From a virus, in IMG/VR virus record IMGVR_UViG_3300045988_129366, positions 1 to 64,000 of that record: DNA of 64,000 nt. One strand, given 5' to 3'. Below are positions 61,283 to 62,650 of the stretch, in pieces (the stretch's first letter is position 1; every line of letters begins with the position of its first letter). Made by a program: the position numbers and the translations under genes. The notes under the pieces were generated by a model. The model did no database searches and was not told where the DNA came from. It worked only from the letters and a program-made list of their open reading frames with translations.

Positions 61283-62650
61283 AGGGCGAGAAAACCCACT
61301 GTTTCAACCGTGGAATGATAGCCCGTTTTGTTGATATTTTCCTTACTAATTGATTGCATATTTGATAATTAATTAGTATCTTTGTGTATGATTTCGTACA
61401 AATACAAACTTTATAACTCCAAGCGAAACAAACATCTTTCGGCTTTGCTGAGAGATGCTTCCTTTGTATGGAATCATTGCCTTGCGTTGCAAAAGCGTTA
61501 CTATCGGATGTTTGGTAAGTTCATCAACGCTAACCGTCTTAAAACGTATTTTGCAAAGCGATACAAGATGTGTCGTCTTCACTCGCAGACCGTACAGGAG
61601 GTGATTGAACGTCTTGATACCGCCTACAAGCGGTTCTTTGACCATATCGCCAAGCGACCGCCAAAGTTTAAGCGAGCGAAAGACTTTGCATCCATCGTAT
61701 TTAAGCAGGGCGGTTACAAGATAGAAGACAACCGTCTTACGGTGAATAAAATCGAGAAGACATTCAAGTTCTTTCTCAGCCGACCCTATGACGGAGCGAT
61801 AAAGCGACTTGTCATCAAGCGAGACACTATCGGAGATTTCTATATCGTGTTGGTTCTCGACCGCCCCGTGAACACTATCGGAAAGACACATGAAGGTGCA
61901 TCCGTTGGTGTGGATTTCGGTCTTAAGACCTACATGACGCTCTCCGATGGCTCTTGTGTTGATAATCCGCGATTCCTCCGCAACGACCTCAGAAGACTCC
62001 GCAAGGCATCCCGCAGGCTTTCTCTCGCGAAGAAAGGAAGCCACAACCGTGAGCGCAGACGCAAGGAATTTGACCGTATTCACCGCGCAATCAGAAACAG
62101 GCGTTCCGACTATCAGTGGAAGCTCGCTCACGAACTTTGTAAAAGGTACGATACTATCTGCCTTGAAGACCTCAATCTTTCGGGTATGACTCGGATGTGG
62201 GGTCAGAAGATGAATGACCTCGCCCATGCGGAGTTTGTCACCAAATTGGAGTATGTCGCCACCAAATATGGCGTTATCATCCATAAGATTGGCAGATATT
62301 TTCCGAGTTCCAAATTGTGTTCTTGCGGTCATGTCAATAAATTGTTAAAGTTGTCCGACAGGTCTTGGGTGTGTCCTTGCTGTGGTGAGGTTCACGACCG
62401 CGACCTTTGGGCATCTCAGAATATTCTTCGGCAGGGCATTGCCGAGTTGGAGAGCGGTAGTAAGACTTCCAAAGCCAAGCGAGGGAGCAGTCGCGTTCGC
62501 ATCCAAGAATCCCATTGTCTTTAGACGTGGGAGTATGTCAACATATCTTCTCATTCTCGCGCAGTCGCAGTCGGGAGTGCAGAGAATATCATAGGCAATC
62601 GTCAGTGCGCCTTTGCTATAATAAAGCGACTTTTTACAGCACAAGCCGCT
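61283..62650 (+). mobile_element. IS200/IS605-family TnpB-only insertion sequence (IS1341/OMEGA-type). Boundaries are approximate.
   Basis: A TTGAT pentanucleotide sits at the putative left junction (61278-61282). A single tnpB ORF and a subterminal right end overlap the 3' end of tnpB. The element interrupts phage gene order and truncates a small minus-strand gene at its right edge. Confidence 0.5.
61388..62524 (+). CDS. tnpB: TnpB (RNA-guided RuvC-like endonuclease of the IS200/IS605 family).
   Basis: The N-terminus YKYKLYNSKRNKHLSALLRDASFVWNHCLALQKRYY is typical of TnpB. The zinc finger CSCGHVNKLLKLSDRSWVCPCCGEVHDRDLWASQNI lies near the C-terminus, and a RuvC-like DFGLKTYMTLSDG is present. 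Confidence 0.8.
   Translation: MISYKYKLYNSKRNKHLSALLRDASFVWNHCLALQKRYYRMFGKFINANRLKTYFAKRYKMCRLHSQTVQEVIERLDTAYKRFFDHIAKRPPKFKRAKDFASIVFKQGGYKIEDNRLTVNKIEKTFKFFLSRPYDGAIKRLVIKRDTIGDFYIVLVLDRPVNTIGKTHEGASVGVDFGLKTYMTLSDGSCVDNPRFLRNDLRRLRKASRRLSLAKKGSHNRERRRKEFDRIHRAIRNRRSDYQWKLAHELCKRYDTICLEDLNLSGMTRMWGQKMNDLAHAEFVTKLEYVATKYGVIIHKIGRYFPSSKLCSCGHVNKLLKLSDRSWVCPCCGEVHDRDLWASQNILRQGIAELESGSKTSKAKRGSSRVRIQESHCL

Follow-up and report, generated by a model that had tools for sequence, protein, structure and literature searches.

The window, as we call the whole 64,000-nucleotide stretch of viral DNA analysed here, carries a mobile element of the IS605/IS608 type that lacks a transposase of its own. 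With a probability of roughly 80%, we read it as a non-autonomous element made up of a left end, a promoter of its own, tnpB and an omega-RNA, whose TnpB/omega-RNA complex would cut the empty allele of the insertion site and let the element spread by homing, while TnpA is provided in trans. The kind of element, a tnpA-less IS200/IS605 derivative with a TnpB/omega-RNA module, is already known; what is new is a copy with a TTAT target-adjacent motif (TAM) in a phage without a close GenBank relative.

Borders of the insertion and the interrupted phage gene

The window belongs to a tailed phage, with genes for the large terminase and portal at 53.5-57 kb, a tape-measure protein of 1,886 aa and tail fibres. 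Among GenBank phage records, its terminase is closest to those of Parabacteroides phages PF672P1 and PF672P2, at 34% identity, and the carrier is a gut Bacteroidales phage with no close relative in those records. The region gave no megablast match to GenBank phages, and the reconstructed empty site gave only a 45-nt match, to Dulem virus 40. The borders of the element were set by the empty sites of related phages, which were fetched with the neighbouring 166-aa gene as a query. In the following features a slash marks the point of insertion.

61277-62541, plus strand: the whole inserted element, 1,265 bp (empty-site reconstruction; similarity to the close copies L001, L066 and L101 spans 61281-62541)
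61273-61276, plus strand: TTAT target site and predicted TAM, directly 5' of the left end (empty sites in relatives)
62538-62541, plus strand: TCAA, the terminal four bases at the right end, which stands in place of the TAM in the occupied genome
61284-61324, plus strand: left-end subterminal hairpin, eroded, with outer stem GGGC/GCCC and inner stem CCAC/GTGG (DNA fold)
62542-62710, minus strand: native part of the interrupted Cys-rich gene, codons 1-56 and the first base of codon 57 (intact homologues)
61257-61276, minus strand: displaced 3' end of the Cys-rich gene, (D)KERLK and TGA, overlapping the ATG of the 166-aa gene (empty-site reconstruction)
62345-62710, minus strand: 121-aa fusion ORF of 56 native and 65 antisense residues, continuing across the right end into the 3' end of tnpB (ORF list)

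In the relatives the empty site reads TTTAT/CATATCTTCTCATTCTCGCG (TTTAT/CATATC). Taking out 61277-62541 joins ...AGAAGATATG/ATAAAGAAAGATTGAAATGAGC and recreates the sequence of contigs L081-L085; the same excision in silico restores a phage gene ending in ...RRYDKERLK and a stop codon, with its ATGA overlap. An IMG/VR search for TTAT followed by the 16 nt that lie 3' of the right end found exact matches in five viral contigs, and three of these (L082, L084, L085) read GTTTAT/CATATCTTCTCATTCTCGCGCAGTCGCAGTCGGGAGTGCA, identical to the window flank over at least 38 nt. The junction can be placed without sliding ambiguity; the target site is not duplicated, neither side repeats a base, and the element has no terminal inverted repeats. 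The empty sites in related phages prove that the element is an insertion and not a resident gene. A search of IMG/VR with the exact right-end junction found no second occupied copy of this site, and within the window BLAST and the covariance model described below found no further copy of the right end or the omega-RNA.

The initial annotation looked to related phages without the insertion for the empty site, and the exact site was found there, which also corrects two of its details. Its borders, 61283-62650, lie 6 nt inside the element on the left and run 109 nt too far on the right, into phage coding sequence. It also took a TTGAT abutting the left end for the target. TTGAT is the target and TAM of ISDra2; here, the empty sites place it inside the insert, as its first five bases (61277-81), and the flanking target is TTAT (61273-76), so TTGAT is rejected as the target and the two elements differ in this motif.

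The motif holds across the family. TTAT precedes all close copies (aTTAT in L001, gTTAT in L066, tTTAT in L101), and all family insertions examined, at least 15 of them independent, have either TTAT or TTAC on their left; among distant members, TTAT/GAT... is found in L054, L020 and L038, and TTAC/GAT... in the L002 group. The right end, ...GAGTATGTCAA, is kept in nearly all family members, and the flanks diverge directly beyond it. IS608 of Helicobacter pylori has a TTAC target, a right end in TCAA and subterminal hairpins, and makes no duplication. As read from these ends, the insertion pattern of the window family is of the IS608 type: the elements enter 3' of a tetranucleotide TTAY (TTAC in IS608, TTAT or TTAC in the window family), end in TCAA and cause no duplication; a subterminal hairpin is apparent at the right end and, clearly in L001, at the left. 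The window copy differs from IS608 in having no tnpA and a degraded left hairpin. The latter retains only about 4-5 bp (-4.9 kcal/mol, z -0.8), whereas the homologous hairpin in L001 has an 8-bp stem (-13.3 kcal/mol, z -3.5); the right-end hairpin is present and covaries in the family alignment. The erosion may mean that TnpA-dependent mobility of the window copy is decaying, with the TnpB/omega-RNA module kept.

The insertion fell into a small Cys-rich gene on the minus strand, and tnpB runs antisense to the surrounding minus-strand genes. Homologues of the small gene are intact in L001, L058, L060, L062, L063 and L065 and all end ...R(Y/F)DK..., while the window reading frame is broken after ...RRY and a G. 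The last six codons of the 62-aa gene are replaced by 65 antisense codons, an extension with no counterpart in the intact homologues, and the ATGA coupling to the 166-aa gene is lost. The reconstruction thus bears out the earlier suspicion that a minus-strand phage gene had been truncated at its 3' end.

TnpB, its omega-RNA and the predicted guide

Between the two ends lie the gene and the RNA on which the proposed function depends.

61377-61384, plus strand: TATCTTTG box, putative promoter, ending 3 nt before the tnpB ATG (read from the sequence)
61388-62524, plus strand: tnpB coding sequence, 378 aa, with RuvC triad D176/E260/D339 and zinc finger C311/C313/C329/C332 (ORF, profiles, structure alignment)
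62414-62541, plus strand: omega-RNA scaffold, 128 nt, overlapping the tnpB 3' end (covariation, covariance model)
62427-62446, plus strand: omega-RNA helix 1 (RNAalifold/covariation)
62447-51 with 62502-06, plus strand: omega-RNA helix 2 (RNAalifold/covariation)
62454-58 with 62490-94, plus strand: omega-RNA helix 3 (RNAalifold/covariation)
62510-62532, plus strand: omega-RNA terminal hairpin, followed by the nine bases GUAUGUCAA and then the flank (RNAalifold/covariation)
62542-62557, plus strand: predicted guide CATATCTTCTCATTCT, 16 nt, which may extend by a few nt (known TnpB architecture)

The protein has 378 aa from the ATG, or 380 aa from a TTG two codons upstream, so that the TnpB ORF reported earlier stands and its length of 379 aa does not. 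It matches Pfam OrfB_IS605 (1.4e-23) and Cas12f1-like_TNB (4.1e-17), both above the gathering thresholds, and scores 259.1 bits against the NCBIfam model NF040570, guided_TnpB, for which the cut-off is 100. Residues 7-352 align to ISDra2 TnpB (8bf8/8exa) with an E-value of 6e-43, and D176, E260 and D339 fall on the ISDra2 catalytic residues D191, E278 and D361; the RuvC-like core proposed from the first reading is thus confirmed. Of the CxxC...CxxC zinc finger, only the second pair has this spacing (C329, C332); the first is CxC (C311, C313). By these profile matches and the conserved triad, the protein is a member of the TnpB family. It is only about 37% identical to copies in Helicobacter phages and insertion sequences. 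Substitution ratios indicate that the gene is under purifying selection, with dN/dS of about 0.1 (0.106 against L001; about 0.10 against L001 or L066).

TAnnTTTG is the Bacteroidetes -7 promoter consensus. The TATCTTTG box fits it, and the same motif stands just upstream of tnpB in most family members; the box is thus a candidate tnpB promoter. The position of this TAnnTTTG-type box, 3 nt before the ATG (61377-61390), also hints at a leaderless or near-leaderless tnpB mRNA. A sigma-70 promoter and terminator scan gave counts equal to the shuffled expectation, and such a scan is uninformative for Bacteroidetes. A 319-aa antisense ORF within tnpB (61373-62332, minus strand) is very likely not a gene, and it is broken into short pieces in L001.

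The tnpB stop codon lies at 62522-24 and the right end of the element at 62541. Aligning the last 220 nt of 28 family members, RNAalifold finds compensatory changes in 19 of 33 predicted pairs. In the four local helices, which comprise 27 pairs, 95.8% of the cells pair, as against 36-47% when the partners are slid by 1-3 columns; double (compensatory) changes occur in 18 of the 27 pairs, and none of 500 shuffles reaches any of these measures. All four helices are intact in the window copy. The covariance model has a single window match, at 62414-62541, with 131.8 bits, the next best being 10.9 bits. When the window is compared with L001, the last 48 tnpB codons show a synonymous divergence of 0.13, down from 0.545, as would be the case if an RNA constrained the DNA there. 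It is strongly supported by this covariation that the structured RNA, which ends exactly at the right end, is the omega-RNA; its 5' end is placed provisionally. An Rfam scan of 60500-64000 at E<=1 matched no family. A possible pseudoknot, ATTCTT/AAGAAT, is not claimed, as one side varies and the other is invariant. The overlap of the right end with the tnpB 3' end and an omega-RNA had been anticipated, and the structure prediction suggested for this region yielded the four covarying helices.

Going by known TnpB architecture, the guide would be the phage sequence flanking the right end, which supports the earlier proposal; its position, its length and the TAM TTAT are predictions from the sequence. 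Five viral contigs are natural DNAs in which TTAT is followed by a perfect 16-nt match to this guide, and the window holds no off-target match to it. Where the element is inserted in the window, TCAA instead of TTAT stands before the protospacer, and self-targeting would thereby be prevented. Such a replacement of the TAM at the occupied site is the usual way in which these elements avoid cutting themselves.

Missing transposase, close relatives and a sibling element

A tblastn search with an IS608 TnpA query (E<=1) found no tnpA in the element or anywhere in the window, in line with the earlier remark that none accompanies tnpB. The same search found tnpA, divergent from tnpB, in about 21 of 57 viral relatives, with E-values down to 4e-38, and two of these genes are Pfam Y1_Tnp (4.6e-42 and 7.5e-40). 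The window copy is thus a non-autonomous (tnpA-less) IS200/IS605 derivative. The initial description as a TnpB-only IS200/IS605-family element within a phage is borne out by the profiles, the triad, the ends and the empty sites, and the two findings that would have told against it, a protein without similarity to TnpB profiles or a resident gene in relatives, are replaced by their opposites (guided_TnpB at 259 bits; empty sites).

Viral contigs from the human gut and the rumen carry relatives of the TnpB, as do Bacteroidales MAGs. Close copies are in the viral contigs L001 (86% identity) and L101 (84%) and in the MAG contig L066 (86%), with about 82% identity at the DNA level. In L001 the sister element (360-1903; 82% nt identity) shares the intergenic neighbourhood of the window copy but is turned the other way with respect to the phage genes. 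There the small gene is intact, with the element some 100 bp downstream of it. The window and L001 elements are two independent insertions, which suggests that the region tolerates or attracts insertions. The L101 element (2501-3656) is about 94% identical in nucleotides to those of L001 and L066 and has 2 nt more from the start codon to the right end; its tnpB frame is broken by a frameshift, and this copy is a pseudogene unless the assembly is at fault.

None of the copies in the window, L001, L066 and L101 has a tnpA, and each sits at a TTAT site of its own in phage surroundings: an endolysin gene adjoins the L066 copy, and that of L101 has genes for a sliding clamp, for an HNH endonuclease and for a Mom-like protein beside it. 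Four tnpA-less copies at four TTAT sites argue for mobilisation in trans. Full-length elements of the IS605 type, with tnpA divergent from tnpB as in IS608, are present in viral contigs of 43-155 kb (L024-L034, L043, L045, L052, L055). The full-length elements of the L024 group occupy at least seven different sites, all ending in TTAC and with different guides, which indicates that the autonomous form actively transposes inside large gut-phage genomes. These full-length elements in phages are a possible source of TnpA in trans.

How such an element might spread at one site is seen in a sibling TnpB-only element of 1,270 bp (the L002 group), whose TnpB is 63% identical to that of the window. 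It occupies one TTAC site in 13 gut-phage contigs (L002-L013, L044), and its exact empty site, TAM and guide, is present in 88 contigs (L166-L253), 85 of which align across the reconstructed junction. Copies of the element in 11 occupied loci share 99.6-99.9% identity, as against only 60-90% for their flanks. Occupied backbones resemble one another no more than they resemble 53 distinct empty genomes, and they do not form a clade apart. The exception lies within about 500 nt on the guide side, where identity is 0.93 between occupied genomes, 0.88 between occupied and empty genomes and 0.85 between empty genomes. This pattern is homing-like: horizontal spread at a specific site, with short co-conversion, would be expected to leave such a footprint. 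Passive, ordinary mosaic recombination between phages, without any cleavage, could also produce it.

Mechanism, alternatives and genomic setting

We propose the following course for the window element. The element entered 3' of TTAT, without duplication, in the last codons of the small phage gene, as the empty sites show. TnpB would then load the omega-RNA, whose anatomy is laid out above and whose 3' guide would be the phage sequence beyond the right end, CATATCTTCTCATTCT..., and the complex is predicted to cut DNA that reads TTAT and the guide sequence, which is the uninterrupted allele. The occupied genome would be spared, with TCAA replacing the TAM. An element-free sister copy or a co-infecting related phage would be cut and then repaired from the occupied copy; such repair would retain or spread the element, that is, homing. 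For new sites, a Y1 TnpA would be needed in trans, supplied by the host or by the full-length relatives borne on phages. The steps of cleavage and homing are modelled on work with ISDra2 and IS608-type elements, in which TnpB homing is described (PMC10055086), and with plasmids, in which TnpB acts as a TnpA-independent gene drive (PMC11870625). In the literature that we searched, drive by TnpB has so far been demonstrated for bacterial chromosomes and plasmids only, and a review mentions RNA-guided homing between phages only as a theoretical possibility (PMC13565253). Against spread of this particular copy stands the single occupied instance of the insertion; in addition, homology to the relatives that hold a perfect target is only moderate on the side of the left end, and copying by repair could be limited by this.

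Beyond this copy, we put forward a wider idea with somewhat less than even odds: TnpB-only IS605 derivatives may be natural RNA-guided gene drives, or nucleases that kill competitors, among co-infecting gut Bacteroidales phages. The window copy would then stand ready to cut and convert the relatives that carry TTAT-CATATCTTCTCATTCT, and the near-identity of the sibling element at one site of diverged backbones would be the footprint of that drive in the population.

Among the alternatives, the one that survives best, although we consider it unlikely, is that the nuclease has been co-opted as a phage weapon and is kept for destroying co-infecting competitors that bear the target, and not for the benefit of the transposon. 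The related phages with perfect targets have weak left-side homology, so that a cut there would be lethal and would not lead to conversion; tnpB and the omega-RNA have been conserved, unlike the eroded left-end hairpin; each of the four close copies resides in a phage; and protein homing endonucleases of phages are known to act in this way (PMC13565253). However, the guide is a mere insertion flank, as in any IS605 element, with no sign of retargeting, and the insertion also damages a phage gene. The biochemistry of a weapon would be identical to that of homing, and sequence alone cannot separate the two. More improbable still is an inactive relic, an old insertion carried passively with no working TnpB/omega-RNA complex. 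The lack of tnpA, the weak left-end hairpin, the single occupied instance and the frameshifted tnpB of the close copy L101 would fit such a relic, but the full-length dN/dS of 0.106, the intact triad and zinc finger, the four intact omega-RNA helices (131.8 bits) and the retained promoter-like box speak for a functional module. That the gene is a resident of the phage or a nuclease-dead regulator derived from TnpB, such as the phage-encoded TldR repressors that are known (10.1101/2023.11.30.569447), has hardly any probability left in view of the exact empty sites, the conserved transposon ends, the intact D/E/D triad and a guide that is the flank of a demonstrable insertion and is not aimed at a promoter.

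With ISDra2 of Deinococcus radiodurans (8bf8, 8exa, 8h1j), the window element shares the domain order of TnpB; in both elements the omega-RNA covers the 3' end of tnpB, runs as far as the right end and takes its guide from the flank. The window element differs in having no tnpA, in the CxC spacing of the first zinc-finger pair and in residing in a Bacteroidales phage. Other TnpB-only elements of gut phages are those of L001, L101 and L066, of Parabacteroides phage PF672P2 and of crAssE-Sib; L001, L066 and L101 share the ends and the TTAT target with the window copy, but the insertion site is different in every case. The predicted outcome, in which an element-free co-infecting genome is cleaved and repaired from the carrier with co-conversion of the flanks, is shared with the homing endonucleases SegF, SegB and Mob of T4-like phages (PMC13565253); the analogy is functional only, and recognition by the window TnpB would rest on an RNA guide and a 4-nt TAM and not on a protein.

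TnpB is ancestral to Cas12 and serves as a compact nuclease for genome editing; phage TnpB genes are usually annotated merely as 'transposase'. The present element extends the TnpB/omega-RNA families by one from Bacteroidales, with TTAT/TTAC as the predicted TAM. Its full anatomy can be read from the sequence: the TAM TTAT, a right end in TCAA, a covarying omega-RNA of 128 nt and a guide of 16 nt. The intact natural target in related phages provides a concrete pair of guide and target, with which homing or exclusion between co-infecting phages can be tested. TnpB genes in crAss-like phages have already been annotated (PMC11054128).

For the annotation of the carrier, the 121-aa ORF at 62345-62710 is an artefact of the insertion, and the true phage gene has 62 aa. 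Among the small genes near the element, one encodes a DUF1064 protein (58403-58807, minus strand; 3e-17) and another an 82-aa Cys-rich protein (59516-59764, minus strand) whose match to a portion of the terminase gpA ATPase profile is weak and below threshold. The remaining small neighbours matched no family, and they speak neither for nor against the early region named in the initial annotation. A single tRNA-Met (CAT) gene (52981-53053, minus strand) lies just upstream of the terminase gene. In PF672P1 and PF672P2, the match to the terminase falls in two pieces over about 2.7 kb for 560 residues (OP172819.1, 46527-49268; OP172820.1, 24864-27605), which suggests that the terminase genes of these phages contain about 1 kb of intervening sequence, an intron, an intein or an inserted gene.
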